This document shows, piece after piece, positions 9,232 through 50,791 of a stretch of DNA of 64,000 bases. The stretch is from contig JAOAGL010000001.1 in the NCBI GenBank assembly GCA_026415775.1, positions 414,831-478,830 of the forward strand. Reading direction: 5' to 3'. How positions within the stretch are numbered: the first letter of the stretch is position 1; each line of letters begins with the position of its first letter. The notes under the pieces are model-generated. The model was given only the letters and a program-made list of their open reading frames with translations, did no database searches and had not been told where the DNA came from. The DNA is from Patescibacteria group bacterium (lineage in GTDB: Bacteria > Patescibacteriota > Minisyncoccia > UBA6257 > JAAZHW01). Position numbers and translations under genes: made by a program.

Positions 9232-9235
9232 ATAT

Positions 9236-10054: not shown

Positions 10055-10069
10055 ATAATTACATTATAG

Positions 10070-11230: not shown

Positions 11231-11266
11231 ATTTCAATTTAATTATAAAAAATAATGAATAAAATA

Positions 11267-11296
11267 AAAGCCGACTTCTCGTCGGCTTTTATTTTA
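11267..11296. terminator. Bidirectional rho-independent terminator
   Basis: aaagccgac-ttctc-gtcggcttt followed by ttttatttta; there is an A-run on the other side. Confidence 0.65.
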
Positions 11297-11309
11297 TCTT
11301 TACCTTCTA

Positions 11310-12296
11310 TTAAAATAACTGCATTTTCATCTGTTCTTTCAACTCTTTAATTCTATCCTGCAAATTTTTTATTTGATTCTTAATTTCCTCTCTTAAACTA
11401 TTATCTTTTTGTTGATTTTGTATTTTTAATTCTTTTTTGAAAAATGGCCTGCCATCATTTCCAACCAAAATTTGCTCTGCAGTTAATTGATTAGCGACTT
11501 TATCATACTCGCCTCTTACAATAACTTTATCGCCATTTTTTAAATCAGCAAATGTGATTGTAGTTGAGGTGCTCATCGGACAATTAATTGGCGGGTAGAT
11601 TTGGATGCAAGCCACGCCTTCAGTTTTGATAATCCGTGTATCATTGGTTACTGCAACATTGATAAGTTCATTTTGTTCGGTTAATAAAGAAAAACTGAAA
11701 TTTCCAAGATTTTGAATTAGGCCTTTAAAAATAGTCAAATGTTTTTGCAAGGATAGGTTCCGCACTGTTTGAGCATAGATGATAAGTGGGGCCTCTTCGG
11801 TAATAAAACCGTAAACATTTACAATATCACCCACCACAAAATCATCCACGTCGCCGCTAATCCATTGGGATTTTAATATTTTTGCCTTGCTTAAATTAAC
11901 CTTGTATTCGATTCCAAAAATTTTAATGGAAATTTCATTCGAACCTACAGCTGTTACTTGCGCGGCCTTAATCAAAACCTCCACTTCTCCTTTGTTTTCC
12001 ACATTAGGACAACCTCCTACTAATCTACAAATAATTCTTCCTTTAATTTCGTTAATGGACAACGATTGTTTAAGATCCTTCTCGGAAATATTTTTTATAT
12101 TAGGTATAATAGAAGGAGTAGGTGTGATGGTGGAGGTAGTAGTTGGTGTTGGCGTAGGAGTTAATGTTGGAGTGGGACTAGGGGTAACAGAGGGTGTGGC
12201 GGTTGGAGTTGGAGTTGACTCTTGCGCAAAAACAACATTAAAAACTAAAATAGATAGAATTGTTACGGATAGGAAAATACTTGTTTTTTTAGTCAT
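11310..12296 (-). CDS. Secreted protein with signal peptide and Pro-Thr linker, hypothetical
   Basis: Signal peptide MTKKTSIFLSVTILSILVFNVVFAQES, a PT-rich run ([35 protein letters not shown]), and a C-terminal coiled-coil. Confidence 0.5.
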   Translation of the reverse strand: MTKKTSIFLSVTILSILVFNVVFAQESTPTPTATPSVTPSPTPTLTPTPTPTTTSTITPTPSIIPNIKNISEKDLKQSLSINEIKGRIICRLVGGCPNVENKGEVEVLIKAAQVTAVGSNEISIKIFGIEYKVNLSKAKILKSQWISGDVDDFVVGDIVNVYGFITEEAPLIIYAQTVRNLSLQKHLTIFKGLIQNLGNFSFSLLTEQNELINVAVTNDTRIIKTEGVACIQIYPPINCPMSTSTTITFADLKNGDKVIVRGEYDKVANQLTAEQILVGNDGRPFFKKELKIQNQQKDNSLREEIKNQIKNLQDRIKELKEQMKMQLF

Positions 12297-12373
12297 ATAA
12301 TATCATTTTATTTCGCCCTTTTATATTATTCTATTATAATTATTTATTTATTATTTACAAATATTTTTAGATA

Positions 12374-12402
12374 TTGCCAAAAAACTTAAAATGTGATATA
12401 AT
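12374..12402 (+). promoter_or_regulatory. Sigma-70 promoter with extended -10 (TTGCCA-N17-TGaTATAAT) driving a probably leaderless CAP-domain gene
   Basis: TTGCCA at 12374-12379, TG at 12394-12395, TATAAT at 12397-12402. The first ATG is 8 nt downstream at 12410 with no SD. Confidence 0.5.
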
Positions 12403-12409
12403 TAAATAT

Positions 12410-13429
12410 ATGGGTAATAAACTCCAAAAACAAATATCAAATTACCTCATTCCACAAGTGGATAATGAATTTCAACCTCATTCTTTAAGAACAAAGTCGG
12501 TGTTTTGGATTTTTATTGCCATTCTACTTTTAGAAAATTTCTTCTTTTTATTAGCTTATTATTTAATTCCTTCTTCTGATTTTCTCGCCTCGCTTATTTC
12601 TACCAGCATTGTTCAATATACCAATCAATATCGCCTAACTTCAAATGCACCCCAGTTAGTTATTAATCCTTTGCTTAACGAAGCAGCACGTCTTAAAGCC
12701 GAAGATATGGCCCAACGAGGATATTTTAGCCATAATAGTCCGGATAATATTACGCCTTGGGAATGGTTAAAAAAAGTTGGATATGATTACCTTTATGCCG
12801 GCGAGAATTTAGCTCTTAATTTTACCGATTCCCAAGAAGTAGTTGAGGCTTGGCTTAATTCAGAATCACATCGTCAAAATTTATTAAATCCTAATTTTAA
12901 AGAGATTGGCATAGGCATTGCAAAAGGCACTTATAAAAATCAACCAGCAATTTTCATTGTTCAATTTTTTGGCACACCAAAATTATTAGCACAACAAACA
13001 CCAGCAACTCCATCTAATTCTAATAATTTAGTTTCATCTCCCACCCCAGCAATAAAAATTCAACCCTCACCAAAATTAACCCCTTCACCAATTGTTACTC
13101 CAACACCAGAACAAAAATTTATTACAACAACCCCTCAAGTTTTGGCTATTTCCCCCATCGCAACAACATCTGCGATGCCTAGTATTAACCCCACATCCTT
13201 CTGGGCATTAATCCTTCAAAAAGTAGTTGCCAATCCAAAAAGTTCTCTTAATTCCTTATTGGAATTCTTCGCTATCTTTATTATCATTGCTCTTTGTCTA
13301 AAAATATTTATTAAAATTGATATTCAATATCCGACACTCATTATTAATGGTGTCTTAATCTTAATCGTTATTATTTTCGCCTGTTGGTTAAATAATTATA
13401 TCTTTAATCTCTGGCCGCAAATAATTTAA
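12410..13429 (+). CDS. CAP/SCP/PR-1 (YkwD-like) domain protein with N- and C-terminal TM segments and a PT-rich region
   Basis: CAP motifs: HR(Q)NLLNPNFKEIGIGIA, GYFSHNSPD, YAGENLA. The ORF-finder start at 12374 is TTG inside the promoter, so the ATG at 12410 is preferred. Confidence 0.65.
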   Translation: MGNKLQKQISNYLIPQVDNEFQPHSLRTKSVFWIFIAILLLENFFFLLAYYLIPSSDFLASLISTSIVQYTNQYRLTSNAPQLVINPLLNEAARLKAEDMAQRGYFSHNSPDNITPWEWLKKVGYDYLYAGENLALNFTDSQEVVEAWLNSESHRQNLLNPNFKEIGIGIAKGTYKNQPAIFIVQFFGTPKLLAQQTPATPSNSNNLVSSPTPAIKIQPSPKLTPSPIVTPTPEQKFITTTPQVLAISPIATTSAMPSINPTSFWALILQKVVANPKSSLNSLLEFFAIFIIIALCLKIFIKIDIQYPTLIINGVLILIVIIFACWLNNYIFNLWPQII

Positions 13430-16164
13430 TTGATTAGTTTTTGTTTTATAAAATAGTATTTTGACACTTCAATCATTGTTAAATTAAGAACGCCAAACAT
13501 TATCAAAATTATCCATTCAATATAATTTAACGGCGTTGTTTTAAGCAACCAATTGAAAAATGGTAAATATACAGCCGAAACTAAAACCAAAAAACAACTT
13601 AATACTGTTATTATTAAATATTTGTTATTAAAAATGCTGTATTGCCAAATATTTTTGCGTAAATTTTTACAACTAAAGATAAAAAAGAAGGAATCAATAG
13701 CTAAACCCACAAACATTATAGTTCTAATTCTTTCCAGTGGATAATCAATTTTCAATAAATAATAAAATAAAAAGAAAAGAACTAAATTCGTCAACATTCC
13801 TACTATAAAAATTATAAACTTCATCTCTTTGTTCAACAATGGCAAAACAGGACTTTCTGGTTTTCTTCTCATAATGTTTTCTTCTTTTGGTTCAAAAGTC
13901 AAAGATAAAGATGGAGGAGTTGATTCAATTAAATTTTTCCAAAGAATTTGAGCTGATAAAACTGGTAGCGGCAAACCAAAAATTACTGATAAACCAATTA
14001 AAACCAACTCGGTAAAGCCACCCGTCAATAGATAAGTTAGAGTTTTTCTAATATTATCAATTATATGCCGCCCTTCTTCTACGGCTAAAATAATAATGGA
14101 AAAGCTATCATCTAGTAAAATTAAATCAGCTGATTCTTTAGCAATAGCAGTTCCCGAACCCAAAGCAACTCCAATATTTGCTTTTTTTAAAGCCAAGGCA
14201 TCATTAACTCCATCACCTGTCATTGCCACAATCTCTCCTTTTTGTTGAAGAGCTTCAATAATTTTTAATTTTTGTTGCGGTTCAACGCGAGCATATAAAT
14301 TAATACTTCCCACTTTCTTTAAAAAATCTTCTTCTTCCATTGTTGCCAATTCCTTGCCTTCGATGATTGCTGAATCTTTAATTTCTAATCCTATTTCTTT
14401 GGCTACTGACAAAGCTGTATTTTTATGATCACCAGTAACCAAAATTACTCTCATACCTGCCTCTTTACATTTTTTAATTGCCTCAACCACATCTTCTCTA
14501 ATAGGGTCTTTAAGTGCTATGAAACCCAGAAAAATTCCTGATTTTAATAGTTGTTCTTTAAAATACGATTCGGAATTTTCTGTTTTTTGTTTTTGAAAAT
14601 TTTCTAAATATTTATTTTTGTTTATTTTACAAAAAGCAACACCAACCAATCTTAAACCCTCCATCATTAAATCTTCTATTAATTTATTAATTTTTTTACG
14701 CTCACTTTCGTTTATTTTTTTAATCTGTCCATCATAAAATAAATTTTGTGAAAATTCTAATAAACGTTCTGGAGCTCCTAAATAACTAATGGCAATTTCA
14801 TTTTTATCTATTTCATTAATTGCTGCTGAATATTTATATTGGGGACTAAAAGCTAATTCATCTATTCGTGGATATTTCTTCTCTAATTCATGCTTTTTTA
14901 TCCCCATTTGATATCCCAACTCTACAACTGCTCTTTCTGTAGGACGACCCCTGCTTATCCATTGATGAATAGGATCATCAGGATTTTCTATAAAAGCGTC
15001 ACAAGCAAGAATGGCAGTTTTTAAAATAATTAATTCAGAAGCTTCTCCATCAATATTTAAAAATTTATGCTTTTTTAGTGTATCTCCTATTAAACTCCTA
15101 GTTGGTGTGTAAATGCCCGAAACTTGCATAGTTGCTTTTGTTAAAGTTCCAGTTTTGTCTGTACAAATTACAGAGGTAGAACCCAAAACTTCAGCAGCAA
15201 CAATTTTCTTAACCAATCCTCTCTTTTTAAAAATTTCCCGCATTCCAAAAGTAAAAATAACAGTCACCACCAAAGGCAAACCCTCTGGAATAGCTGCTAC
15301 TGCTGTTGCAACAGAAACCGTCAACATTTCAATAAATGGTCGATTATTTATAATGCCTAAAATAAAGATGCTTAAAACAAAAATAGAAATTATTAATCCT
15401 AAAAATTTACTAAAATATTCTACTTTTCGCTGAAAAGGTGTTTTATCTTTTTCAATATCTTGAAGAATAAAACCTAAATTTCCAAATTCTGTATCTTTTC
15501 CTATAGTAGTAACAACCATTACCCCTCTGCCTTCTTCTACCAATGTTCCCATATAAGCCATATTATCTCTGTCCGCTAATGGTGTATCTTCTGGCAAACT
15601 TTCTGTAGTGCACGATTTTGCCAGCCATTCTCCAGTTAAAATAGATTCATTAATTTTCAAATTATTTGCTTCAATAATTCTACCATCAGCAGGAACGCGC
15701 TGTCCCATTTCTAAAATCACAATATCTCCTGGTACCACTTCTTCTGCTGTAATTTCTTTAATTAATCCTTCTCGTTTAACTTTAGCACTATTTTTTAAAT
15801 ATTTTTGCAATTGTTGAAAAATCTGATTTGTTTTTTTCTCTTGAAAAAATCCAATAAAAGAGTTGATGATTATTGTTCCAAAAATAACAATGCTATCTGT
15901 AAAATCTTTTAAAAATATAGTAATAATCCCACCAATTAATAATATATAAATTAAAGGGCTTTTAAATTGTTTCAAAAAAAGTCTTAATAAATTAGTTTTT
16001 CTATATTCTTCCAATTTATTCAAACCATAAACATCCTGTCTTTTAGCTGCTTCTTTGTCATTTAATCCCGAATTTCTTGTTTGCAAAATAGAAAAAATTT
16101 TTTCACTTTCTAGAGCATGCCAATTTATAGTTTTATTTTTGTTTTTTGTATTATTTAATAACAT
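13426..16164 (-). CDS. P-type cation-transporting ATPase (P2-type, Ca2+/Mg2+-like)
   Basis: Phosphorylation motif ICTDKTGTLT, hinge VAMTGDGVNDALALKKANIGVALG, M4 motif IPEGLP, and about 10 TM segments. Confidence 0.85.
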   Translation of the reverse strand: MLLNNTKNKNKTINWHALESEKIFSILQTRNSGLNDKEAAKRQDVYGLNKLEEYRKTNLLRLFLKQFKSPLIYILLIGGIITIFLKDFTDSIVIFGTIIINSFIGFFQEKKTNQIFQQLQKYLKNSAKVKREGLIKEITAEEVVPGDIVILEMGQRVPADGRIIEANNLKINESILTGEWLAKSCTTESLPEDTPLADRDNMAYMGTLVEEGRGVMVVTTIGKDTEFGNLGFILQDIEKDKTPFQRKVEYFSKFLGLIISIFVLSIFILGIINNRPFIEMLTVSVATAVAAIPEGLPLVVTVIFTFGMREIFKKRGLVKKIVAAEVLGSTSVICTDKTGTLTKATMQVSGIYTPTRSLIGDTLKKHKFLNIDGEASELIILKTAILACDAFIENPDDPIHQWISRGRPTERAVVELGYQMGIKKHELEKKYPRIDELAFSPQYKYSAAINEIDKNEIAISYLGAPERLLEFSQNLFYDGQIKKINESERKKINKLIEDLMMEGLRLVGVAFCKINKNKYLENFQKQKTENSESYFKEQLLKSGIFLGFIALKDPIREDVVEAIKKCKEAGMRVILVTGDHKNTALSVAKEIGLEIKDSAIIEGKELATMEEEDFLKKVGSINLYARVEPQQKLKIIEALQQKGEIVAMTGDGVNDALALKKANIGVALGSGTAIAKESADLILLDDSFSIIILAVEEGRHIIDNIRKTLTYLLTGGFTELVLIGLSVIFGLPLPVLSAQILWKNLIESTPPSLSLTFEPKEENIMRRKPESPVLPLLNKEMKFIIFIVGMLTNLVLFFLFYYLLKIDYPLERIRTIMFVGLAIDSFFFIFSCKNLRKNIWQYSIFNNKYLIITVLSCFLVLVSAVYLPFFNWLLKTTPLNYIEWIILIMFGVLNLTMIEVSKYYFIKQKLIN

Positions 16165-38430: not shown

Positions 38431-40494
38431 TTATTCCTCTTTAATTTCAATATCTTTAACCTCTTTCCCAATTTTCTGTTTAACCCATTCCAAATCCTTT
38501 AAAAGTTTTAATTCTAATCCCTCTTCTTCTTCTTTTATTTCACCTTTAAGTTTAAGGCTTTCGATAAATTCTAGTTGTTTTTCAATATCGCGTTTCAACA
38601 GTAAAAATCCATAACGAACTGCCTCTTCAGCTTCTTTAATTTCTTTCATTACTAGGCGATGTTTCTTTCTCCCCTGATAAAAATGATAGGAGGTATAAAT
38701 CAAAGCAATAATCAAAATAATAAACAAAACAAGAGAAACCACAAAATAAATTGCCTCATAACTTAACTGCGAAACTCCAAATTGAAAAGCAACGGGTTTC
38801 ACGGTTAACTTAAACTGCGGCGACGGCGGACTTAATTCATTATTAACTCTCATCTGTGTCCAAATTAAATAATTACCGCTAATCAAAAACTTCGGATGCG
38901 AATAAAACCAATCGCCTTTGTTGTCAGATAAAGCAGCAAGAGAAGTGACCTCTCCAGTTTCTAAATTCTGAAGATAAATAATTACTTCGGCATTTGCCAC
39001 TTGAGTTTTCCCACCAATATAAAATATTTCTCTGTTTGTAATATTCTCTGAAAATTCTAAAACAATCGGCGGTGATAACTTAGCAGTTTGAGCTTTAATA
39101 GTTGAAAGAGTCAACAAACAAGATAATCCCACAATCAAAATAATAACTGCGATTTTCCCATATTCTTTTCTTTTATTTTTTAATTCTTCGATGCGTTGTT
39201 TAATAACCGGATCTTTTTCAATGCCGCCTAACAAAATTTTATTCTTTTGATAATGCCATTTTCTGGCTTTGTAAGCGAAAAAACCAATTAAAGCAATTAG
39301 ACAGATAAGTATTAACCATAGGCCAATCCATGGGATAGAAATAATTTCGCTGATTTTTAAGCCTTCCCCTTGAACAAATTGAAATATAGGTGTCACGATT
39401 TTAACTCGTTTTTTACTCTCAATAAAATTTCCGGCTCTATCGTAAGCCCTAACATATAAATCATAATCGCCTAAATCTAACTGAAGGATGTGCGGCAAAT
39501 CTGCTTCTGTAAATAAAATTTGGGGTGTTTCTTGCTGAGCCTGAACTGATTTGTTTAATTTCAACGGAATGACTTTAATTTCATAATGGTCTATACCTGA
39601 AGTAGTGTCCGTAGTTAAAAATTCCAAAATAATTGTTTTTTGACTAGTATGCGTTGAAGGAGAAACTTTTATTGGAAATTGAGCTGGCGGACTTGTGTCA
39701 ATTTTAACCGCATAATGACTTACACCACCCCAAAAACCACTTCTTTTAGCTTTTAAATGAAAATACCAGACACCATCAGCAAGATTATTATAATTTACAT
39801 AGTTTTCTTTTTCATCAAGAATATCGTCTGGAATAGTTAAAGGATTATTATCTAAAACATAACTGTATCCTTCAATCCCTTTTCCCTCTTCAACCAGCCA
39901 TTGAAAATTAACATTATCATTGTTGTACCATTTTGTGGAGTCTGGATGCGTTGAAGAAATAATCTCTGGGCCGGCAGGAGGAGGAAGTACTAATTCATAA
40001 ACGCCACCCTTTGTTTGTCCTAAAACATCTGTTCCTTTTCCATCAGCTAAAAGAACTTTTGATTTTGCAGTATCGAATCTGAGTGACGCTGTGCCAATTT
40101 CTTTAGCGCGGAAAGTAACTGTCAGCAACAAACATGAATCAGTGTTAATGCCCGGCGCGCTAATCCCTCCAGATAATTCTAACCATCCTTCAGAATTAGA
40201 ATATGTTGGTTGTTTCAACCAAATTTCCAAACATGATTTTCCTGTTGAAGGAGAAACAATTTGTAATTTTTCTGATGGAAATAAAATTTTTGTTTGAACG
40301 GCATTAATAAAATTGCCATTAGTATTAACATAAAAAGAAACTGTAAAAGTATTACCAATAGGAATTGTTCCTGAATTCGGAGAAACATATAAAACAGCCT
40401 CTTTAATTTCTGCCTTCAAAGGGTATATTAAAGGGGCGACAACGAACAAAACAATGATTAAATTAACAATTAGAAAATTCGGGAATTTTTTCAT
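38431..40494 (-). CDS. Large multi-TM surface protein with an N-terminal cohesin-like domain
   Basis: Signal/TM at the N-terminus. Residues ~30-150 (AVLYVSPNSGTIPIGNTFTVSFYVNT...ILFPSEKLQIV...LLADGKGT) resemble cohesin modules. It has three internal TM helices and a charged coiled-coil C-terminus. Confidence 0.4.
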   Translation of the reverse strand: MKKFPNFLIVNLIIVLFVVAPLIYPLKAEIKEAVLYVSPNSGTIPIGNTFTVSFYVNTNGNFINAVQTKILFPSEKLQIVSPSTGKSCLEIWLKQPTYSNSEGWLELSGGISAPGINTDSCLLLTVTFRAKEIGTASLRFDTAKSKVLLADGKGTDVLGQTKGGVYELVLPPPAGPEIISSTHPDSTKWYNNDNVNFQWLVEEGKGIEGYSYVLDNNPLTIPDDILDEKENYVNYNNLADGVWYFHLKAKRSGFWGGVSHYAVKIDTSPPAQFPIKVSPSTHTSQKTIILEFLTTDTTSGIDHYEIKVIPLKLNKSVQAQQETPQILFTEADLPHILQLDLGDYDLYVRAYDRAGNFIESKKRVKIVTPIFQFVQGEGLKISEIISIPWIGLWLILICLIALIGFFAYKARKWHYQKNKILLGGIEKDPVIKQRIEELKNKRKEYGKIAVIILIVGLSCLLTLSTIKAQTAKLSPPIVLEFSENITNREIFYIGGKTQVANAEVIIYLQNLETGEVTSLAALSDNKGDWFYSHPKFLISGNYLIWTQMRVNNELSPPSPQFKLTVKPVAFQFGVSQLSYEAIYFVVSLVLFIILIIALIYTSYHFYQGRKKHRLVMKEIKEAEEAVRYGFLLLKRDIEKQLEFIESLKLKGEIKEEEEGLELKLLKDLEWVKQKIGKEVKDIEIKEE

Positions 40495-40504
40495 TTTATT
40501 TCCA

Positions 40505-41392
40505 CTACCTTCTTTTATTATAAAATAATTTTACTAATAAACCAATTACTAAAATTGCTATAATAATTAAAATCAATTTTTCAAATAAAACTCTATAAAA
40601 ATAAACTGTTCGTTGATTACTATTACCAAAATTATCCACAGCCAAAAATTGAATAGCCCAAATATTTTTAGAAAAACCAAAGGGATTAGTTATTTCATAC
40701 CAATCACTCCATTGAAACCATTTTTTTACTCTAGCAAAATCTTTAACCATTCCAGAGTTATCTTTTGTTTCAAAAATTAAAAACTTCTCTTTGCTGTTGA
40801 AAGGATTATCAGCTATTCTAAACAATAAAATTTCTGGCTGAATTTTATCTTCCTTAACTATCACTGGTCCTTGTTTAACAACCAAACCAGAATTTTCTTG
40901 ATTATCACCTTCTATCTTGATTTGTGAAATATACAAAGGGATATTTTTAATTTCTATTTCATCAGCCATTGTCCCTTTGCCATCAGCCAAATAAGCAGCT
41001 GCTTTTTTAAAAACAAAATTTTCTTGTCCAGCTTTTAGCGCTTCAAAAATTAACGCAATAATTTGTCCATTTTCACCAACAAATGGTTGAATGGAGCCTC
41101 CTTGTAAAATAATTTCATTTTGATTATTCACTTCGATTTTTTTCCAAATATTTATAATGGAATTATCTTTATCAAATTGCTTAAATTTTATTAATTCGGA
41201 AGGATATTGAACAATTAAATCATATGCATTAAGCGGTTTATCAGAATCAACGCGAACATAAACAATAAATTCCAAAGATTTATTATCGGGTTGAATTCCA
41301 TCAAAATAAAAAACTGTTTTAGCGTCCACGCGCAAACTCAAGAAAAAAGAACAACAAATAAAGATTAAAAATAATATTCTGGTTTTTTTCAT
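40505..41392 (-). CDS. Secreted/anchored protein with a cohesin-like domain (paralogous to the N-terminus of 38431-40494)
   Basis: LNAYDLIVQYPSELIKF... and AAAYLADGKGT share the LADGKGT motif with its neighbour. Signal peptide and C-terminal TM (LILIIIAILVIGLLVKLF). Confidence 0.4.
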   Translation of the reverse strand: MKKTRILFLIFICCSFFLSLRVDAKTVFYFDGIQPDNKSLEFIVYVRVDSDKPLNAYDLIVQYPSELIKFKQFDKDNSIINIWKKIEVNNQNEIILQGGSIQPFVGENGQIIALIFEALKAGQENFVFKKAAAYLADGKGTMADEIEIKNIPLYISQIKIEGDNQENSGLVVKQGPVIVKEDKIQPEILLFRIADNPFNSKEKFLIFETKDNSGMVKDFARVKKWFQWSDWYEITNPFGFSKNIWAIQFLAVDNFGNSNQRTVYFYRVLFEKLILIIIAILVIGLLVKLFYNKRR

Positions 41393-41393
41393 A

Positions 41394-41912
41394 TTAGCCA
41401 GTCCAATAATAAAGAATTATTGATAAATCGACAATATCTAAAACACCATCGTCATTTAAATCTTGCCAATAAAAATCTTCATTTGGATTCCCCCAGTAAT
41501 AAAGAAATATTGAAAGGTCGACAATATCAACTCTTCTATCTTTATTAAAATCTGGCGATTTTTTTCTTAAATAAATATCAGGTGGTAAAGTAGGACCAAA
41601 AGGTGGCGAAGGTAAAATAGGAGAAACAATAAAACCGCCACCGGGATGAGGCGTTAGCGTCGGTGTTGGAGTAAAGGTTATAGTTGGTGTCGGGGTTGGA
41701 GTCGGAGTGGGGGTTAAAGTTGGTGTGGGCGTTGGTGTTTCGGTTGGTGTTGGTGTAGGAGTAGGAGTGGTTGTGGGAGTTGGTGTTTCTCCGGGAATAA
41801 CTACTTCAATTATTAAATTTTGACTAGCAGAAAAAATCTCTTTTGTCAAAAAAAAAGAAAAGAACAAAAAAACAATAACAAAACAAAAAAACCACTTGCG
41901 ATAATCCAACAT
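41394..41912 (-). CDS. Secreted protein: signal peptide, Pro-Thr linker, C-terminal dockerin-like duplicated Ca-binding repeats
   Basis: Two tandem segments [20 protein letters not shown] and [20 protein letters not shown] fit the dockerin pattern D-x-N-x-D-G-x-x-D-x-x-D-hydrophobic helix. Confidence 0.5.
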
Positions 41913-41946
41913 ATTGGTGTTTTAAATGGATACTACTCTTTTCTTC

Positions 41947-42879
41947 TTATTCTTGATTTTCTTTTGGTTTTTCTTCTACCTTAACAATCTTGAATTTTTT
42001 CTTAAAAAGTTTAATTCCCCAGACAATCAAAAGAATAATTACAACAATAAGAATCGCCTCTTGGTAGGGAAATGCCCAAATTACTATCTTAGCCGGTTCA
42101 ATAGCCGGGCCGTTAGGAATATAAGTATTAATAACGACATTTAAAGGGCCAAAGAAGTATTTGCGGTCCCATTTAACAGCAAAAGTGCGGTCAAAACCCG
42201 GAAAAACAACGCGTGAATCAATTGCTAATTCTTGTTTTTGGAAAAGACCAGAAATAACCACCTTGCCTTCGGGCGCAATATAGGTATTGCCTTCGTTTAA
42301 AATTTTAAAAGCAGTTGTTAACGGCCCATGATCAATAAATTTAGGCGCTTGAATGCTGCTGATTTTAGCTTGTTTTACCACATCGCCAGTGACTTCCACC
42401 AAAATTACTGTGCCAGTTCGTCCCGAAATACCAATACCACTCGCCTCTTCTGCTGGTTTGCCTTTAAACAAAACAGCGGCGTAATGTCCGCCGGGCGGCG
42501 CATTCTCCGGAATTTTAATTTTATAATGAAACTCTCGACTCTGTTTTGGTTGAAGCTCAAATTCTTCAACATCATAACTAATCCACTTTGCCAAACCATA
42601 TTGATTAAGATCTTCGGAAGTTAAAGAAATACTTCCCTCAGCGCCACCCCTAATATTTTCCTTTTCCACAATTACCTTTAAAACAAAATCATTCGGATTA
42701 ACAATTGTTGTCATTCCCTCCCATTCTTGTCCCGGACTTAAAACAATTTTATAAGAAAGCGGGTAAACGGTGATTCCGATATCCGCTTTCGCTTGATTAA
42801 TAAGAAAAAGAAAAATTATTAAACAAAAAGCAAACAAAAATCCGTGAATTAAATTTTTTGTTGTTTTAGTTAACAACAT
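41947..42879 (-). CDS. Surface protein with N-terminal signal and C-terminal TM anchor (CscA/DUF916-like architecture)
   Basis: MLLTK...FCLIIFLFLINQAKA signal, C-terminal ILIVVIILLIVWGIKLF anchor. It lies immediately upstream of the WxL-like genes. The family assignment is inferred from architecture only. Confidence 0.35.
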   Translation of the reverse strand: MLLTKTTKNLIHGFLFAFCLIIFLFLINQAKADIGITVYPLSYKIVLSPGQEWEGMTTIVNPNDFVLKVIVEKENIRGGAEGSISLTSEDLNQYGLAKWISYDVEEFELQPKQSREFHYKIKIPENAPPGGHYAAVLFKGKPAEEASGIGISGRTGTVILVEVTGDVVKQAKISSIQAPKFIDHGPLTTAFKILNEGNTYIAPEGKVVISGLFQKQELAIDSRVVFPGFDRTFAVKWDRKYFFGPLNVVINTYIPNGPAIEPAKIVIWAFPYQEAILIVVIILLIVWGIKLFKKKFKIVKVEEKPKENQE

Positions 42880-42912
42880 ATTTTTTCTTTCTGCTATAAA
42901 AATCTGCTCTAA

Positions 42913-43524
42913 TTAAATCGCCAATGCTGTTAAGGTAATAGTACCGCTATAAACGCCGCTGGGTTGAGATATTGGTGCATCAATTCTAAACCCATAAACC
43001 ACTGTTTGCTCGCTTGATTGATAAGTACTAATTGTAGCTATTTCTTGAGAACTAGCTGGAAAACCAGCCCATTTTGGCGAAGAATCATTTGTGCCCCAAT
43101 AAGTAGAATTATATAAACCAGCTGGTGTCGTACCGGTTTGATAAACACGGAAGGATAAATTGGAACCGGGGGTATCTGTTGAATTGCTTCCATTCCAAGC
43201 TGTTTCATCGGGAAAATCAACTGTTTGATTGCTATCCAAATCTAAAGTAGAATTAGCATCATCTCTTTTTGCTGACAATTGCCAACCACTATTTGAGTTA
43301 GTCGTTACACTGCAAGAAGTAGTAGCGATAATTGGTGTCCCAGGAGTAAGAACTCCTAATGCTACAGTATTGGTGGCCAAGCTAAAAGTTAAAGTGGTCG
43401 TGACTGTCACTTGAATTGTCTGACTTTGATCACTGGCTTGAGCAATTTTGTAAAATTGATTAACTAAAGCCGAGCTTAAAACCACAAGACCGACCAAAAT
43501 AAAAATTTTTACATCGTTTTTCAT
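42913..43524 (-). CDS. Small secreted protein with a WxL-like C-terminal domain (homologous to the C-terminus of the giant protein)
   Basis: Signal peptide, GWQLSAK motif, and C-terminal FRIDAPISQPSGVYSGTITLTALAI. These align with YRADAPISQPIGVYTGDITITALGNL of ORF 43737-48338. Confidence 0.4.
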   Translation of the reverse strand: MKNDVKIFILVGLVVLSSALVNQFYKIAQASDQSQTIQVTVTTTLTFSLATNTVALGVLTPGTPIIATTSCSVTTNSNSGWQLSAKRDDANSTLDLDSNQTVDFPDETAWNGSNSTDTPGSNLSFRVYQTGTTPAGLYNSTYWGTNDSSPKWAGFPASSQEIATISTYQSSEQTVVYGFRIDAPISQPSGVYSGTITLTALAI

Positions 43525-43620
43525 TTTTTATTTTATTAATTAAAAATCGACCTTATTTTGATTCTTTAATCTTATTATAAAATTTTTTAATTCAATCAAC
43601 AAGTGAATTATCCACAACAA

Positions 43621-43736
43621 GTCTAGAAGCTAGAAAATAGAATCTAGAAGCTAGAATCTTGATTTTTAAGAACCTCTCCTTTCTTTCTTCTATTTTCTAT
43701 TTTCTATTTTCTAGATTCTATTTTCTAGCTTCTAAC
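43621..43736. repeat. Complex palindromic/tandem repeat: 26-bp perfect inverted repeat (43624-43649 vs 43709-43734) with internal direct repeats (tctagaagctagaa x2; ttctatt x3)
   Basis: Read directly from the sequence. It is unusually rich in CTAG. It sits 3 nt downstream of the stop of the giant gene and upstream of ORF 42913-43524. Confidence 0.7.
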
Positions 43737-46700
43737 TTACAAATTCCCCAACGCTGTAATCGTAATATCGCCGGTATAAACGCCGATAGGTTGAGAGATG
43801 GGCGCATCGGCTCGGTATAAAATCATATTAGTTGTCGTACCGTTTTGACAAGACGGACTAGAGCAGGTCATTATTGTTTGAGATGTTTCTGGCATACCGG
43901 CAAATTTTGCCGTGCCTTCATTATCATTTAATCCCCACCAAGTGGAATTATAGTTTGAATCGGTGCCGCTACTCATTAAACGGAAAGAAAAAGTTGAGCC
44001 AGGCGTGGTCGTGGCATTACCGTTGCCGCCGTTAGCTGTTGGGTCCCAAACCGGCGTATAATCGGGAAAGGTAATTGATGGATTACTTTGAAGCGCTAAA
44101 GTAGAAGTGCTACTTGCGCGTTTGATTGCTAAATAATAACCGTTGTCGTAACCGCTTACAACGACCGTTGCCGTTGTTGTTGCCGAAACCGGAATTTGAG
44201 GCGCTAAAATACCAAGATTAATATAATTACTTGAAAGATTAAGAGTTAAACTTTGTTGTAATGGAGCCGTAGTAATTTCAGGATAGACATTATAAAAAAT
44301 TGTTTCGTAATCGGGATTGCTAATATTGGCTTTTACCACTTGGAAACAATAAGGAGTTAACGGAGACGCTCCGTTGTCCTGTAAAGAGAAATCCCACATT
44401 CCATCTTCTCCAATATTAACCATTGAAATAGCATTAATAAAATTGTTTGATTCAACATAAGTTTGACGTTTAATCGTATGGCCATTATGTGTCGGGTCAT
44501 TATCATTAGCTATTAAAGCATCTCCGTCATTAACATTACTGTTATCATAAAAAGCAATGGTTGAAGTTGAAGTAACATCAGTGAAAGTTTCATCGTCTCC
44601 ACAAACTGAACCGCTTTTAGGAGCGTATTGCAATTTTAGATATTTCCCATTTTGTAATAATTCATTGGTATCAATATGGAGCAGTAATCTTAAGCGGAAT
44701 GGCTGATTGGTAACGTTTAAACTGGCCGGCGTATTAGTGTTTGCTAATGGATTGCCCACATTAGCAGAGTTTTGATTTTCAAAAAAGCGATAAGCTGATT
44801 GGGTGATTTTAACACCGCCTGTTTCATAATAACTTTGACGAATCAATTGTTCAATCCCATCCCAAGAACTAGTGACTATACCCCATTGCCAAAAAGTTAA
44901 AGAAACCGTCTGATTGGGAGCAACGTTATTCCATACAGAATCAAAGAAAATATTATCAGTTTCACCACTGGCATCGCTCTGTTGATCATCTACTCTCCAT
45001 TCGGAAGTATAATTAACCCATTCCGCCCACGGAGAAGAGTTGGTTATGGCAGCGGAGGTTAAGAAATATCCGTAACGAGGGGGATTATTTTCATTAAAAA
45101 TTACACCCATAGCTGCATAAACACCAACATCATAAGTAGTAAACCAATTTTCCGGCAGAGTAGAAGTACTCATTAAAATATGCGTCTCGGGAATAACATT
45201 AGAAGTATAACCGGCATAACGACCTCTATCGTTTACATTTCTATCTGTACCCAACCACTGTTCTCTTCCCCATACCATCGGGTAAATATGAGAAGTGCTA
45301 TCATTATTTTTAAATTCATAGGTATTTTTTAAATATGGTTTATTAGCATAAAATTCTTGAGTTCGCGTAGCGGAAATATAATTATTTAATTGTTGTGCCC
45401 ACCCAGTTGATGCTGTATCATCGGAAACAACTCGCCAAACAATTTTTGTATTATCTTCACTAACAATCCAATTAGTACATTGATTGGGTTTCCATTTAAT
45501 ATCAGCAGAATAATAGTTAGAAGTATCTGCTCTTATAGTATTATCAACATGCACCGCTACTCTTTCCATACAATCTAAATTAACATCATCATTGTTAACA
45601 AAATTACGCCCAGTTAACTCTATTTGTTCACCTTCTCCCTCATGTCCACAACCAAAAATAACAGTATTAATGTAATTATTACCAAAAAGTATACCATTCG
45701 AAAAAAGCCTTTCACCCATATTATATGTTTGCACTCTATCAACGCGCGTCATAAATAAATCAGTATCGGATCTAAAATTTAAATTAACTGTGTAATAGGT
45801 ATTAGCAGCAACTGAAGCCTTTTGAATATACAATGTGTGTTTATTATTATCCCACCACCAACAATCTGTTGTTGAAGCGGGCGATCCTTGAGGGATAGAA
45901 GAACTGTTTATAGTTACAGAAATATTGCTAATATTTGCTGTTATTGGATGAAAAGGAATAGCAAATGCGACATTTGTTCTCGCGCTTGCACTACCGCCAA
46001 TAGAAAAATCTTCGATTGAATAGTCCCAATAACTGCCGCTTGAATTCCAAGTAGGATTAAATTCTGTGCCGTAACCCATCTGAGTGGTACTAATTGCATT
46101 CCAACGACGCACAACATAAGTTGAAAAACTTCCGGCTGAAGCTGAATAATCAATAGAACTAAAATTGGAATCGTTATCTAATTGAACTGTAACATTATAG
46201 GTTCCGGTATTGGGATCAGCGCAACCATTACAATACCACGAACCAACATAAATAATACCTTCAAATTGACTAGTTGAAGAATTCCAAGTTAATTGAGTAT
46301 AATAAGTTTCTGAAGCTGGTGTATCAACTTTTGCACGGGCATGGGGATAATTATTTGGTGACAAAGATCCATGAAGTTGCAAATAAACAGGAATAGCCCC
46401 ATACCAACTATCAGAAGTTTTACCTAATGATCCGGTAATATAATCGGTAATAGCACTCATGGTAATTTGAGGAATAACTGAATAAGTATTAAGTAAACTA
46501 CCATCGTTTTTAACAATTCGAAAACAATAAGTAGTTGAAGTGGGGGTAGAATTATTATCAAAAAGAGCAAAATCCCATTTGCCGTCTTGGCCTGCAGAGA
46601 TTGCAGCGACTGAGTTGGTAAAAGGATTAAGCTCTTCGTAAGTTTGGTTAACAATAGTATCAGAACCATGTGTCGGATCATTGGTATTGGCAGTTAAATT

Positions 46701-48338
46701 CGCACCATCAGAAGGAGTAGAATTATTATAAAAAGCAATAACCGTACTAGTTGTAACATCACTATAGGTTTCGCCGGAAAAAGAAGTATCGCATACTCCA
46801 TCAGTACCACGCTGGGCAAATTGGAGTTTGAAACTGCCTTCGTTCGTAAATAAATCAGAAACGCCGACATGCAAAAGCATACGCAATCTAAATGCCGCGC
46901 CGGTTAAGCCAAGCGTTGCCGCCGTATCCTGCGCGGCAAGCGCGGTTCCCACATCGGTTGAATCAGTATTATTGAAAAACCGATACGCGGCCTGTGTATA
47001 GGTCTTTGGCGCGATGGGTCGGCCGAAAAGGTCATCGGGCGTAGCGGCATACCAGGTGGCGTAGATGCGTTGAGTTGACGCAGACATCAAGCTTAACCTG
47101 CCGCCGTAGATATCGTCGTTTGAAGAATACACCGGACCAAATTCAGAACTCCAGGTAGAACCGCCGTCTGTAGAATATTTCCAGTAGAGGTTGCCGGTTG
47201 AAGCGGTGCCGGGGGTTGATCGGGCGGAATAGAGAACGTATAGATAGCCCGTGTTCTGGTCCCTTGCGATTTTTGCTCCGGTGATACCGCAGTTTGAGAC
47301 GCCCGCGCAGACGCTGTCGGTGACGACATCGGTCAGAGCGGTCCAGCTCGTTCCAGAAAACTTGCGGACTCTGATATCGTCATCGGTTCCCAATGTGGCC
47401 GCGCTTGCCGCGTATGCCAGATACACATCGCCATTTGAAGTGTCAACCGCTGCGCCGAAGGATGCGTCGTAGGTGGTATTATCAAGCGCGGTGTCAATAT
47501 TCGCAAATGCAGACCAAGTTCCGGTGTATCGTGAGTATTTAAGGTCGTTCGTTGTTGCCGAAATATCCCACCAAATAAACATCATCTCGCCCGAGAGCCG
47601 CGGGATCAGAAGCATAAAGTCGTCTCCATTTGTCCACGAAGCCGGTTCGGAAACCGCCCAGTTAGTAGCGGTGGTGCAGGTTGTGGTACAGCGAACCATC
47701 ATATTGTCGGTTGTGTCGGCAACCGCGGCATAGAGCGCGCCGTCAGTTGCTTTGGAAATGGCGACGTGGTTTGTGCCGGCAGTTAAAGTACCTGTATAAC
47801 CGAGACCGCTTGTAATGTTGACCGGGCCGGTTGAGAGTGTATCGGTTGAAGTGTCAAGAGTTCTGTACCAGATATCATCGTTTGTTACATCGGTGGTTGC
47901 GATATGAATTAAATTGCCGGTTGTGTCGCCCGGAGTCCAGCGGTCATACCATACAGCGATTTGGATGATGTCGGTCTTTGCATCAACCGTAACCGGCGCG
48001 CCCCAGGTTGCGCCGCCATCCGTAGTTTTACTGTAGACGGCAGTGCCCGCGGAATCTACGTAAAACGCATAGCCGGTTGTCTGGGAAGTAAACACAGTGG
48101 TTGGCGAGCCGCCGAGGTGTTCCGCGGGGGCGGTACTCACCGTCGAGTCAATCGTTACCTGCGCCGCGAGTGCTTTTTGAATTTCCGGCGGAATTCGCGG
48201 ATTTTGCCAAATGGTTGGCCAGCCGGAAAAAATCCAAAGAAAAATTACTAAAAATACTAACAAGTTTCTAACAAAACTTTTTACAAATTTTTTTGTTTTA
48301 ATATTCGCTATCCTCATAAATTCAACTTTTTTCATCAT
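43737..48338 (-). CDS. Giant (1533 aa) surface protein: N-terminal TM, BNR/Asp-box repeat (sialidase-like propeller) domain, two ~185-aa internal repeats, WxL-like C-terminal domain
   Basis: BNR motifs SKTTDGGATWGAP, YSTDGGSTWSSEF. There is an internal duplication starting AYRFFNN...FRLRMLLH... / AYRFFENQ...FRLRLLLH... The C-terminus is homologous to ORF 42913-43524. Confidence 0.6.
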   Translation of the reverse strand: MMKKVEFMRIANIKTKKFVKSFVRNLLVFLVIFLWIFSGWPTIWQNPRIPPEIQKALAAQVTIDSTVSTAPAEHLGGSPTTVFTSQTTGYAFYVDSAGTAVYSKTTDGGATWGAPVTVDAKTDIIQIAVWYDRWTPGDTTGNLIHIATTDVTNDDIWYRTLDTSTDTLSTGPVNITSGLGYTGTLTAGTNHVAISKATDGALYAAVADTTDNMMVRCTTTCTTATNWAVSEPASWTNGDDFMLLIPRLSGEMMFIWWDISATTNDLKYSRYTGTWSAFANIDTALDNTTYDASFGAAVDTSNGDVYLAYAASAATLGTDDDIRVRKFSGTSWTALTDVVTDSVCAGVSNCGITGAKIARDQNTGYLYVLYSARSTPGTASTGNLYWKYSTDGGSTWSSEFGPVYSSNDDIYGGRLSLMSASTQRIYATWYAATPDDLFGRPIAPKTYTQAAYRFFNNTDSTDVGTALAAQDTAATLGLTGAAFRLRMLLHVGVSDLFTNEGSFKLQFAQRGTDGVCDTSFSGETYSDVTTSTVIAFYNNSTPSDGANLTANTNDPTHGSDTIVNQTYEELNPFTNSVAAISAGQDGKWDFALFDNNSTPTSTTYCFRIVKNDGSLLNTYSVIPQITMSAITDYITGSLGKTSDSWYGAIPVYLQLHGSLSPNNYPHARAKVDTPASETYYTQLTWNSSTSQFEGIIYVGSWYCNGCADPNTGTYNVTVQLDNDSNFSSIDYSASAGSFSTYVVRRWNAISTTQMGYGTEFNPTWNSSGSYWDYSIEDFSIGGSASARTNVAFAIPFHPITANISNISVTINSSSIPQGSPASTTDCWWWDNNKHTLYIQKASVAANTYYTVNLNFRSDTDLFMTRVDRVQTYNMGERLFSNGILFGNNYINTVIFGCGHEGEGEQIELTGRNFVNNDDVNLDCMERVAVHVDNTIRADTSNYYSADIKWKPNQCTNWIVSEDNTKIVWRVVSDDTASTGWAQQLNNYISATRTQEFYANKPYLKNTYEFKNNDSTSHIYPMVWGREQWLGTDRNVNDRGRYAGYTSNVIPETHILMSTSTLPENWFTTYDVGVYAAMGVIFNENNPPRYGYFLTSAAITNSSPWAEWVNYTSEWRVDDQQSDASGETDNIFFDSVWNNVAPNQTVSLTFWQWGIVTSSWDGIEQLIRQSYYETGGVKITQSAYRFFENQNSANVGNPLANTNTPASLNVTNQPFRLRLLLHIDTNELLQNGKYLKLQYAPKSGSVCGDDETFTDVTSTSTIAFYDNSNVNDGDALIANDNDPTHNGHTIKRQTYVESNNFINAISMVNIGEDGMWDFSLQDNGASPLTPYCFQVVKANISNPDYETIFYNVYPEITTAPLQQSLTLNLSSNYINLGILAPQIPVSATTTATVVVSGYDNGYYLAIKRASSTSTLALQSNPSITFPDYTPVWDPTANGGNGNATTTPGSTFSFRLMSSGTDSNYNSTWWGLNDNEGTAKFAGMPETSQTIMTCSSPSCQNGTTTNMILYRADAPISQPIGVYTGDITITALGNL

Positions 48339-48490
48339 TAATAAAATTGCACTAATTACTTTTAATATTTCTTCTCTTTTTTTAAAATTTATTTGTTTCT
48401 TTATTAATTGCTATGGTACTTTTTAAAATTCCAGTTTTGAACGTGCGTAAGATTGTTTTAAAAATTCCATCATCCAAAATTGATTCAAAA

Positions 48491-50260
48491 TCAAAAATTA
48501 ACAACATTAATCTGACACATCGTTACTAAATTATCCGTTTGATAAATAATCGGGATACTAAAATTGCCTTTCTGAGAATTAGGCAAAGCAATTATTTTTA
48601 ATACTAATTCTTTATCATCTTTGTCTGGAGTAATAACATAGTCGATATTTTTAGCAAAAAATATTTCAAGACCCTGAGGTAAATTGCCGATAGTTATCTT
48701 TTGAAACAACGCATTTGGGTTTTTGTTCAAACGCACATTAACTTCTTTTACATCACCTTCTTTAATTTGGATATTAAATGGTTCTACCGAACAAGAAAAC
48801 GATGAATTGCTTTCGATATTTAAATTTTTAATCTCTGTTAATTCCTTTGTTTTCATTTTTAAACTATCCAGTATTTGTTGAACTTCAAAAGGAAATTGGA
48901 TTGGTGTGGGCGTCGGCGTTATTGTTATTGGTTCGGTAATTTCGGGTGTTTCTTCTATTGCTTCATATTCAATTTCCAACTGCGCGCCATCCAAAAAAGC
49001 AATTAAATTATCCTCTAAATTGGTGTTTAAAGTTGATTCGATACTGATTTGTAAATTATTGATTTCTAACCAGTTGGTAAGCGTTAATTCAAATTCTGTT
49101 TGATAATTTTCTTTATTATCAATGATTGTCAAAACTTGCCAATTTTCGCCATCCAAAGTGTATTTAATGATAAACAAAGGCGCTAAAGTCGGCGTTGGCA
49201 AAGTAGTGGATGTTATTTCTGCTGAAGGAGTAATTTCTAAAGCGGGGCTTTCGCTTGTTTCAGGAGTAGAAGTTTCGATTGTCGCCATGGGTGTTTCGAC
49301 TGGCGTGAAAGAATCTTCTGTTTCAAGAGGCATTTCGATTGGAGAAGCTGATGGTTCTGAAGAAGGTGTTGGCTCTAAAGTGGAAGCGGGAGTGGAAATG
49401 TAAGTTGGTTCTGGTGTTGGGGTATTTTTTAAAGTGGGCACAGCAGTTGGGTTGTTTTCTAGCGACGATTCGGTTGGAGATGCTTCTTGAGCCAAAACTT
49501 TTTTCAAAAATATTTTTAACAAAGAAAGTGGCGTTGGCGTTGGTCCTTCGGATTGAGTCGGTGTAGGTGTTGATGTTGGTTGTTCTAATGGAGTTGGTGT
49601 TTGTTTTAAAATTGGAGTTTGTTCAGTTGTTGGTGTTAATTCAATTTCTGGGCTTGATTCGATAGTTTCAGTTGAGGTGGAATTGGTAGATTCAATATTT
49701 GTTTCTGTGGGTGAAAACATAAGTGTATTTTCTTCACTCGGGGAAGGAATTTCTTCCGGTGGAACAATTATCATTGTTGGTGTTGGTTCAATTAAGTTTA
49801 AATCATTAAGTTCTTGTTGTGTTATTAACCATTCATTTTTATTTCCGATTCTAAAATTAAGTTTTAATGTTGCGCCGGTAATTTGTTTGTCGTCGGTTTC
49901 AATAAGGGATGGATTTTGAAAACCGCCAAAAAAAATCTGTTTTATTCCTCCGCCATCAAAAATAGCTGAATTATTTTCATTAAAATATTTTAGCTCAGCA
50001 TCAAAATCTAAATCCGGTTGATCAATGGCTTTATCAACATTATTCCAATTTCCCAAAGCTGAACTAGGGTAAAAATAAATAATATCAGCTTTTAAAACAG
50101 CGCTATAAAAAAGCCAGCCAGTAATAATTAAAACAATAAAAATCATTAACCAATTAATAATTTGGCTTCTCTTTCTTAAATCCAAAATTTCTGTTTCTTT
50201 AGCTTTTTGAATATCGGTAAAATAAGCTAATGTTTTCTTTTTTGCCTTAGCCCTCATCAA
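48491..50260 (-). CDS. Membrane-anchored protein with long Pro/Thr/Ser/Glu-rich low-complexity region, hypothetical
   Basis: N-terminal TM (IINWLMIFIVLIITGWLFY) and a PT/ST-rich middle section. Confidence 0.45.
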   Translation of the reverse strand: MMRAKAKKKTLAYFTDIQKAKETEILDLRKRSQIINWLMIFIVLIITGWLFYSAVLKADIIYFYPSSALGNWNNVDKAIDQPDLDFDAELKYFNENNSAIFDGGGIKQIFFGGFQNPSLIETDDKQITGATLKLNFRIGNKNEWLITQQELNDLNLIEPTPTMIIVPPEEIPSPSEENTLMFSPTETNIESTNSTSTETIESSPEIELTPTTEQTPILKQTPTPLEQPTSTPTPTQSEGPTPTPLSLLKIFLKKVLAQEASPTESSLENNPTAVPTLKNTPTPEPTYISTPASTLEPTPSSEPSASPIEMPLETEDSFTPVETPMATIETSTPETSESPALEITPSAEITSTTLPTPTLAPLFIIKYTLDGENWQVLTIIDNKENYQTEFELTLTNWLEINNLQISIESTLNTNLEDNLIAFLDGAQLEIEYEAIEETPEITEPITITPTPTPIQFPFEVQQILDSLKMKTKELTEIKNLNIESNSSFSCSVEPFNIQIKEGDVKEVNVRLNKNPNALFQKITIGNLPQGLEIFFAKNIDYVITPDKDDKELVLKIIALPNSQKGNFSIPIIYQTDNLVTMCQINVVNF

Positions 50261-50310
50261 TAATATTATAACACTTTTATTTTGAATGTTTTTATTAAGT
50301 TATCCACACA

Positions 50311-50350
50311 AAAACAAAAAACCCGATTAACAATTGCTAATCGGGTTAAA
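50311..50350 (-). terminator. Rho-independent terminator of rplK
   Basis: Minus strand: aacccgatta-gcaattgt-taatcgggtt followed by ttttttgtttttg. Confidence 0.75.
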
Positions 50351-50368
50351 AGGAAACTGTTTTTAATC

Positions 50369-50791
50369 TTAATCAACAATTTCTATACCCATATTCCGCG
50401 CTGTTCCCTCAATCATTCTCATTGCTGCCTCTAAATCATTTGTGTTTAAATCTGGCATTTTAATCTCGGCAATTTCTTTAATTTGTGCCCGTGTTACCTT
50501 CCCTACTTTCTTTCTGTTTGGTTCGCCTGAACCTTTTTCAATACCAGCAGCTTTTCTTAAAAGATCAGAAGCTGGTGGAGTTTTTAATTTAAACTCATAA
50601 CTTCTATCTTCGTAAATGGTAATTTCAACAGGAATAAGACTGTCGCCTTTATCTTTAGTTGCTTCATTAAAGCGCTGACAAAATTCACCAATATTGATAC
50701 CTTGAGGACCTAAAGCAGTACCAACTGGTGGTGCTGGGTTGGCTTTTCCTGCTGGTATTTGAAGTTTAATAATAGCTTTTACTTTTTTCAT
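50369..50791 (-). CDS. rplK: 50S ribosomal protein L11
   Basis: [34 protein letters not shown]... Confidence 0.95.

Follow-up and report, generated by a model that had tools for sequence, protein, structure and literature searches.

The classic mosaic genes generated by inter-species transformation are pbp2x, pbp2b and pbp1a of the pneumococcus and penA of Neisseria, and module swapping at junctions is familiar from phage receptor-binding proteins and from polymorphic toxins (CdiA-CT, Rhs). The bacteria of the candidate phyla radiation (CPR, Patescibacteria) are mostly uncultivated, with tiny genomes, and are thought to be attached to other cells. In one of these, a Patescibacteria group bacterium, a 64,000 nt stretch of contig JAOAGL010000001.1 (positions 414,831 to 478,830, assembly GCA_026415775.1; the window, in which positions are counted from the first nucleotide) carries a gene for a giant surface protein of 1533 aa, and a 1.35-kb tract in this gene is far richer in GC than the remainder. 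The best explanation, to which a probability of about 0.8 can be given, is the recurrent in-frame replacement of the cassette coding for the propeller head of the protein, by homologous recombination from a GC-rich pool of alleles that is spread across the CPR. The process is known in kind, from mosaic surface genes and flexible islands; it is the setting, the distances and the compositional signature that are unusual.

As in the pbp and penA mosaics, in-frame blocks that diverge by approximately 15–25% lie in a gene that is otherwise near-identical between close strains, other lineages can be recognised as the source of the blocks, the alleles are patchworked and mobile elements play no part. 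The partners here, however, are far further apart (approximately 62% protein identity in DnaE) than sister species among commensals; what is exchanged is an entire folded domain of a surface protein, which differs from its host by more than 30 points in GC content at third codon positions (GC3); and the selective agent, an antibiotic in the classic cases, is not an antibiotic here. With the phage receptor-binding proteins, CdiA-CT and Rhs the gene shares a constant scaffold with an exchangeable module, including the presence of non-homologous modules in the same slot (loci L012 and L026, below). It differs from them in that the variable module is N-terminal and distal, beside the membrane anchor, that there is no immunity gene or toxin signature, and that the junctions are not exceptionally conserved.

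Strain-variable surface islands have been described in Haloquadratum walsbyi, as a cell-wall island (PMC4535781), and in SAR11, as hypervariable regions (PMC2217521). In these islands, as at the present locus, a cluster of secreted or surface proteins between conserved core genes is sharply different among near-identical strains; here the cluster is absent from some strains (L023, L024) and has divergent alleles in others (L025, L027, L022). What differs is that the replacement is here resolved to one domain in one gene, and that its alleles cross deep lineages. Natural competence with homologous recombination has been shown experimentally within the Patescibacteria, in Saccharibacteria (PMC10633639).

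The two comparisons that set the limits of the replaced cassette are with the same gene in a sister strain (L027, NCBI GCA_020049655.1) and with a gene from a distant Parcubacteria lineage (L001, represented by two Logan assemblies with flanks of 42% GC). The features of the gene to which the text refers are these:

43737–48338, minus strand: gene for the 1533-aa membrane-anchored giant surface protein (ORF list and translation; NCBI MCX8016143.1 by exact-sequence look-up).
48219–48266, minus strand: N-terminal hydrophobic segment, aa 25–40, NLLVFLVIFLWIFSGW, AT-rich and native by translation and alignment; a putative transmembrane anchor, read from the sequence rather than with a prediction tool.
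46887–48236, minus strand: GC-rich replaced cassette, codons 35–484, 54.1% GC, GC3 0.57 (limits set by the alignments of the window with L001 and with L027).
47829–48236, minus strand: sub-tract, codons 34–170, with 87–93% DNA identity to the L001 gene (alignment).
48216–48236, minus strand: 5' crossover zone, TGGATTTTTTCCGGCTGGCCA, which codes for WIFSGWP; upstream the match is to L027 and not to L001, downstream it is to L001, exact over 108 nt.
46869–46892, minus strand: 3' crossover zone, codons ~483–490, within the stretch coding for AYRFF...FRLR (alignments).
47004–48176, minus strand: beta-propeller head domain, aa ~55–445, predicted sialidase/BNR-like or lectin-like fold (AlphaFold2, Foldseek).
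48003–48026, minus strand: Asp-box 1, TTDGGATW, aa 105–112 (motif in the translation).
47151–47174, minus strand: Asp-box 2, STDGGSTW, aa 389–396 (motif in the translation; weak Pfam BNR/BNR_2 matches).
46449–47000, minus strand: first 'AYRFF' beta-rich domain, aa 447–630, which straddles the 3' boundary (family homology beyond the GC step).

The tract at 46,887–48,236, as limited by comparison with the related strains, is 54.1% GC, against 36.8% in the rest of the gene and 32.6% in the rest of the window. In steps of 200 nt the GC content is 50–60% across approximately 46,800–48,200 and 22–41% in the adjacent steps, and no 1-kb bin of the window outside the tract exceeds 39%. Along the gene, GC3 rises from approximately 0.2 to approximately 0.57 in the tract and then drops back, and the step is abrupt, from 0.25 to 0.57 within about 20 codons. 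A likelihood change-point analysis of GC3 places the limits at codons 38–509 (0.572 inside, 0.253 outside, log-likelihood ratio (LLR) 71.5), where 150-codon windows of the 47 other open reading frames (ORFs) have a mean of 0.238 (standard deviation 0.043, maximum 0.387).

Ala, Thr, Gly and Asp are over-represented in the segment, and Asn is under-represented. Amino-acid content alone does not account for its GC3, which is predicted from the amino acids of the segment and the codon usage of the window to be 0.29 and is observed to be 0.57, and translational selection was rejected because just the first third of the same gene shows the effect. The shift resides in codon usage, beyond amino-acid content. 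An earlier, preliminary description of this DNA had reported a GC-rich segment of approximately 1.4 kb at 46880–48240, with the reading frame open across both of its boundaries, two Asp-box motifs and enrichment in the same four amino acids. All of this is borne out, including the step when sliding GC and codon usage are plotted, and its limits lie within about 10 nt of those set by alignment.

On the alignments, the sister strain L027 is the decisive comparator for the recombinant cassette. Codons 8–42 of the two genes differ at 2 of 105 nt, codons 43–484 by 24.8% and codons 485–1533 by 3.4%, so that the rest of the gene is 97% identical and a block of raised divergence, as in mosaic genes, stands between near-identical sides (chi2 499, p 1e-110 for the contrast along the gene). 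Past the 3' crossover the two are again approximately 97–100% identical and AT-rich. The allele that L027 has in the slot is also GC-rich, with a GC3 of 0.67 against 0.27 in the rest of its gene.

The match of the window to L001 begins at the 5' GC boundary with an exact run of 108 nt (TGGATTTTTTCCGG...) and continues at 87–93% to codon ~170, after which it falls to approximately 72%; the sequences upstream of the boundary are not related. At identical residues the codons of the window and L001 are themselves identical at a frequency of 0.585, where 0.373 is expected from composition, while between the window and L012, a low-GC ortholog, there is no excess. The genome that carries L001 is distant from that of the window (protein identity 62% for DnaE, 52% for L7/L12 and 30% for L10). 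Outside the module, DnaE and rplL alone align, at approximately 66%, and the flanks of the module do not. The L027 allele is 80–91% identical to the same L001 gene, at codons 326–475. That the window and L027 match L001 in different parts indicates that the alleles are patchworks from a common pool. In neighbour-joining trees the propeller falls beside P0002/L001 (72% bootstrap) and residues 510–650 fall beside L012 (93.5%).

The ortholog L012 is full-length, with the same 1533 aa as the gene in the window, which points to in-frame replacement and not to insertion. It has the propeller at the same position, with a low GC3 (0.34), and its neighbouring genes are the closest relatives of those in the window (50–68% aa identity). 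On this comparison the propeller is already part of the architecture of the gene, the change concerns which allele fills the slot, and the event would therefore be an allelic replacement of a homologous module. As read from the alignments and trees, the mosaic structure, its breakpoints, the CPR origin of the alleles and the recurrence of the exchange can be taken as demonstrated. That the gene is a genuine mosaic and not the result of random insertion, as originally proposed, thus stands on the divergence from L027, the match to L001 and the conflict between trees, all of which point to lateral in-frame exchange of DNA.

Swaps and mosaics of this kind are seen at other loci. L012 and a related locus, L026, have approximately 90% DNA identity on both sides of the slot and are non-homologous over codons ~55–447; L012 carries the propeller there (2432–3609), and L026 a domain of ~390 aa with three repeats of 'ASLTSFDxxGFT(I/L)' (2172–3379), the single-sequence AlphaFold2 model of which is of low confidence (predicted local distance difference test, pLDDT, 30). 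L019 and L020, which derive from one sample, share just the 1.7-kb module, at 90% and locally 99% identity, and their flanks do not align. There are internal GC3 steps in L004 (codons 291–610, 0.55 against 0.32, LLR 19 with a null maximum of 7.5) and in L021 (codons 16–490, 0.36 against 0.13, LLR 27 with a null maximum of 6.2). L004 is CP055307.1, a single-contig record of 901,682 bp whose CP prefix suggests a finished genome. In this record an rve-family integrase gene (12321–13391) lies immediately downstream of the homologous propeller gene.

When the 465-aa segment was searched against 5.8 billion proteins, it matched proteins of about 750–800 aa at up to 83% identity, with Parcubacteria, Liptonbacteria, Yanofskybacteria or an unnamed metagenome as the named sources, and the full-length query added proteins from Paceibacterota and Patescibacteria. 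The close homologues (69–83% aa identity) are all from Parcubacteria, Paceibacterota or Patescibacteria, in CPR-type gene neighbourhoods. Homology in this family spans aa 4 to aa 650 and the family match therefore extends beyond the 3' GC boundary; the module itself is present in one to three copies across many CPR surface-protein architectures. Peptide-pattern scans found 5 loci in a set with one genome per species and 7 in metagenomes of the Joint Genome Institute (JGI), none closer than approximately 79% aa identity. A scan of viral contigs with the cassette found nothing, which leaves a phage vehicle without evidence.

The origin proposed in the preliminary description was a one-off domain fusion from a high-GC donor outside the CPR, such as Actinobacteria, and the high GC and the Ala/Gly-rich, Asn-poor composition would suit such a donor. 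All homologues above 40% identity, however, are CPR proteins that share the anchor-propeller-AYRFF architecture, and in the one-genome-per-species scan no non-CPR relative exceeded 29% over the propeller, the best being from an Elusimicrobia metagenome-assembled genome (MAG; query aa 204–461). Since the low-GC ortholog L012 has the propeller in place, a fusion is not supported, and since the top matches are Parcubacteria-type proteins, an origin in the Actinobacteria or elsewhere outside the CPR is extremely improbable. The horizontal acquisition that was proposed along with it stands. The best matches are indeed, as the preliminary description had named in refutation of it, in low-GC CPR bacteria with a similar local composition (L027, L021, L004); this leaves lateral transfer intact and moves the donor into a CPR-wide pool of alleles. 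That sister strains hold different alleles in the slot, and that these alleles are patchworks, would equally be expected if the cassette were copied from silent propeller sequences elsewhere in the genome, as at pilE/pilS or vlsE. Such programmed variation is very unlikely, given that blastn and tblastn of the cassette against the 64-kb window recovered no part of it a second time, that silent copies in a genome of 33% GC should themselves be AT-rich and that the tracts are common to very distant lineages. As to signs of a diversity-generating retroelement, there is no cassette repeat in the window and no reverse transcriptase among the window ORFs scanned. A chimeric assembly, which the preliminary description also allowed for, would require the assembler to have crossed between co-occurring Parcubacteria at conserved stretches of the gene. 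The family is widespread, several members can occur in one sample (as L019 and L020 do), and the junctions are supported by assemblies, not reads. Yet three assemblies from three sources (the NCBI MAG of the window, JGI 3300038743 and NCBI GCA_020049655.1) have a GC-rich cassette in the slot and a frame that stays open, and in two of them the junctions are the same; the JGI contig (L022, sample 3300038743, 322 kb) has the same giant gene with 1 nt different in 19 kb. At the 5' junction the match of the window to L001 breaks off sharply on the upstream side of the TGGATTTTTTCC... stretch, and the longest aligned exact run between the window and L012 is at most 15 nt, so that any k-mer bridge would be short. 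The same kind of mosaic is present in the single-contig record L004, and a chimera is barely credible.

A different account accepts that the exchange is real and concerns the source of the GC richness: the module would be a recombination hot spot at which repeated GC-biased gene conversion has raised synonymous GC everywhere. The locus is demonstrably recombination-prone, and the GC3 of the module is above that expected from host codon usage in all nine loci with usable flanks, and likewise in L027 (for example 0.22 observed and 0.18 expected in L006, 0.60 and 0.46 in L020, 0.57 and 0.29 in the window). In addition, the background GC3 of every sampled host is below that of the richest alleles (0.6–0.67), and it is for this reason that import from a GC-richer lineage is a matter of inference. 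Against conversion, the abrupt step coincides with a switch of nearest relative, as import would look, and the low-GC hosts L006, L013 and L012 carry nearly host-like modules, as amelioration predicts; the gradient of GC3 across loci fits import followed by amelioration. Polarised substitutions on the branch of the window have no excess of weak-to-strong changes, on small counts (4 vs 4; 34 vs 28), and as a test of amelioration they are underpowered, with 8 informative sites in the young tract. Biased conversion as the general cause is on balance improbable, and a GC-richer reservoir lineage, GC-biased gene conversion at a hot spot and a vehicle are all possible sources of the excess. It is unlikely that Parcubacteria share across family- or order-level distances a pool of GC-rich head cassettes whose composition is unlike that of the sampled hosts. 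Were this the case, the cassettes would need a reservoir or vehicle of their own, whether a lineage outside the sample, an unrecognised mobile carrier or a programmed recombination slot under strong GC-biased conversion, and there would be, in these epibiotic bacteria, a mechanism of inter-lineage variation in host range or phage evasion.

Besides the want of a sampled host as GC-rich as the alleles, several observations weigh against replacement of the cassette by recombination. The crossover stretches are not conservation peaks, the 630-codon module having approximately 69% pairwise DNA identity throughout, and the breakpoints may therefore be chance positions. Dedicated conserved recombination 'handles' were considered and rejected, the identity over codons 31–50 and 480–500 being 0.61–0.75 against a module mean of 0.69 (standard deviation 0.07). 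No near-identical donor DNA was found for the whole cassette; protein identity over the entire segment is 83% at best, and codons 170–484 reach just 75–82% DNA identity to any sampled locus. L022 is essentially the same strain as the window, and is thus an independent assembly but not an independent lineage. Finally, the continuity of the junctions rests on assemblies rather than on mapped reads, which leaves a small residual doubt, with a chimera unlikely.

The AlphaFold2 model of the propeller has a pLDDT of 90.4 and a predicted template modelling score of 0.88. Its Foldseek matches in the PDB are GH33 sialidases, GH145-type hydrolases and the seven-bladed PLL/PHL lectins (E 1e-10 to 1e-7; template modelling score 0.45–0.55; sequence identity 9–16%). 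With such a model, these matches and two copies of the Asp-box consensus S/T-x-D-x-G-x-T-W, the adoption of a beta-propeller fold by the segment can be regarded as established at the level of prediction. Domain matches in other proteins, together with the L012/L026 swap, set the limits of the propeller module. The likeness to the GH33, GH145 and PLL/PHL propellers does not extend to sequence, where identity is low, or to Pfam, where both families scored below the gathering threshold on the segment (BNR_2 19.4 bits against a cut-off of 31.4, BNR 11.8 against 27). The propeller may bind its ligand or may hydrolyse it. The string 'NPRIPPEI' (aa 46–53) sits in a low-confidence linker ahead of the propeller in the model; it was rejected as a sialidase RIP motif because P0123, a protein without a propeller, retains it.

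Under allelic replacement, the 1.35-kb tract would be the coding cassette of the outermost ('head') propeller of an anchored surface protein, the native AT-rich module having been overwritten in frame by foreign alleles of the same module through homologous recombination. The crossovers would lie in stretches conserved in the family, that coding for WIFSGWP on the 5' side and that coding for AYRFF...FRLR on the 3' side. The incoming alleles, themselves patchworks, would come from a GC-rich propeller pool common to deeply divergent Parcubacteria, and the slot appears to have changed its content on more than one occasion in this lineage and is occupied by an unrelated domain in a related one. 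The DNA may have been taken up by natural transformation. The driver may be diversifying selection on an exposed, putatively ligand-binding head, either through attachment to host cells or glycans or through escape from phages that use it as a receptor.

A surface protein with a distal domain that is repeatedly overwritten or swapped is a strong candidate for the interface of partner specificity in bacteria of this kind. Its incoming alleles circulate among lineages as distant as 62% DnaE identity, which indicates that homologous recombination in these organisms can span very large evolutionary distances, given a sufficiently conserved module. Because the module is GC-rich relative to every host, it is a concrete case in which the effects of donor composition and of GC-biased gene conversion in bacteria could be told apart. 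A local departure in GC within a CPR gene, moreover, need not mean binning or assembly error.

The remainder of the protein, which is annotated in MCX8016143.1 as 'MAG: hypothetical protein, Patescibacteria group bacterium' on a MAG contig of 492 kb, and the other genes of its cluster comprise:

44259–44837, minus strand: second AYRFF domain copy, aa ~1168–1360, 44% identical to the first (sequence comparison).
43746–44243, minus strand: C-terminal domain, aa 1366–1531, paralogous to the downstream 203-aa ORF (sequence comparison).
38431–43524, minus strand: downstream genes of the surface cluster (203, 310, 172, 295 and 687 aa), with signal peptides or anchors and weak dockerin, WxL-interacting-protein and Big_13 matches.
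48491–50260, minus strand: upstream gene of the cluster, 589 aa, membrane anchor and P/T/S/E-rich linker (translation, domain scan).

The C-terminal domain and the 203-aa ORF (42913–43524) are 45% identical. The AYRFF domain has local matches of 60–66% to proteins labelled MshQ/DUF6701. The middle region of the protein is unannotated. Like the AYRFF domain, the C-terminal region, the 203-aa neighbour and the head domain that L026 has in place of the propeller, it matches no Pfam family.

The window is otherwise ordinary core chromosome of a CPR bacterium of approximately 33% GC. Its core genes include those for L7/L12, L10, sigma-70, primase, Ddl, Alr, DnaE, ThrRS, MiaA and GatB, and also Tmk, L11, NusG, GyrB, a class II (D/K/N-type) aminoacyl-tRNA synthetase and RmuC; another two ORFs correspond to genes that are called as DnaJ and DnaK in the near-identical contig L022. 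The window ORFs scanned include no gene for a transposase, an integrase or a reverse transcriptase, and no phage gene. The giant gene belongs to a cluster of seven genes for anchored or secreted proteins between rplK and tmk, and homologous clusters are present on many Parcubacteria contigs.

Other parts of the cluster, at 38.5–41.5 kb and 42.7–43.3 kb, are also strain-variable. In the window, 40371–41600 (the 295-aa gene at 40505–41392 and the adjoining end of the 687-aa gene) has approximately 30% DNA divergence from L022, although the two differ by 1 nt over the 19 kb beside it; on this alignment the cluster has undergone allelic replacement at a second place. L027 likewise diverges in the area of 40.4–41.6 kb, in the 687-aa gene (60–75% identity) and in the 203-aa gene. 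In two related strains, L024 (Logan SRR31366472) and L023 (Logan SRR28062283), the interval from rplK to tmk lacks the giant gene and all the rest of the surface cluster. The end points of the deletion differ between them, being 39489–49750 and 41774–49525, respectively, in the window, and at the join in L023 the two blast matches overlap by approximately 60 nt, which hints at a repeat-mediated deletion or at a short-contig artefact. In L025 (Logan SRR31392928, 1–2862) there is a 1576-aa allele of the giant gene, with 76% DNA identity over the C-terminal 954 codons and flanks at 94%. Judged from these comparisons, the locus is a hot spot with the pattern of a flexible cell-surface island.

Genes with matches to four-helix bundles of the 23S_rRNA_IVP/bAvd type adjoin homologous clusters in L001 (3906–4253), L006 (9447–9821), L003 (5949–6191) and L020 (6772–8889); near the giant gene of the window, neither genes of this type nor a reverse transcriptase were seen. 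The surface cluster (38431–50791) is wedged after nusG-rplK in the window, where rplJ-rplL (1113–2036) lies 47 kb away, and in L001 the homologous cluster (4292–13815) is followed directly by rplJ-rplL. From these positions, the cluster seems to be located at the conserved rplKAJL region in Parcubacteria, which it may have split. At 49200–49800 the GC skew of the plus strand is strongly positive (0.44–0.56), because of the P/T/S/E-rich low-complexity linker of the 589-aa protein encoded on the minus strand.

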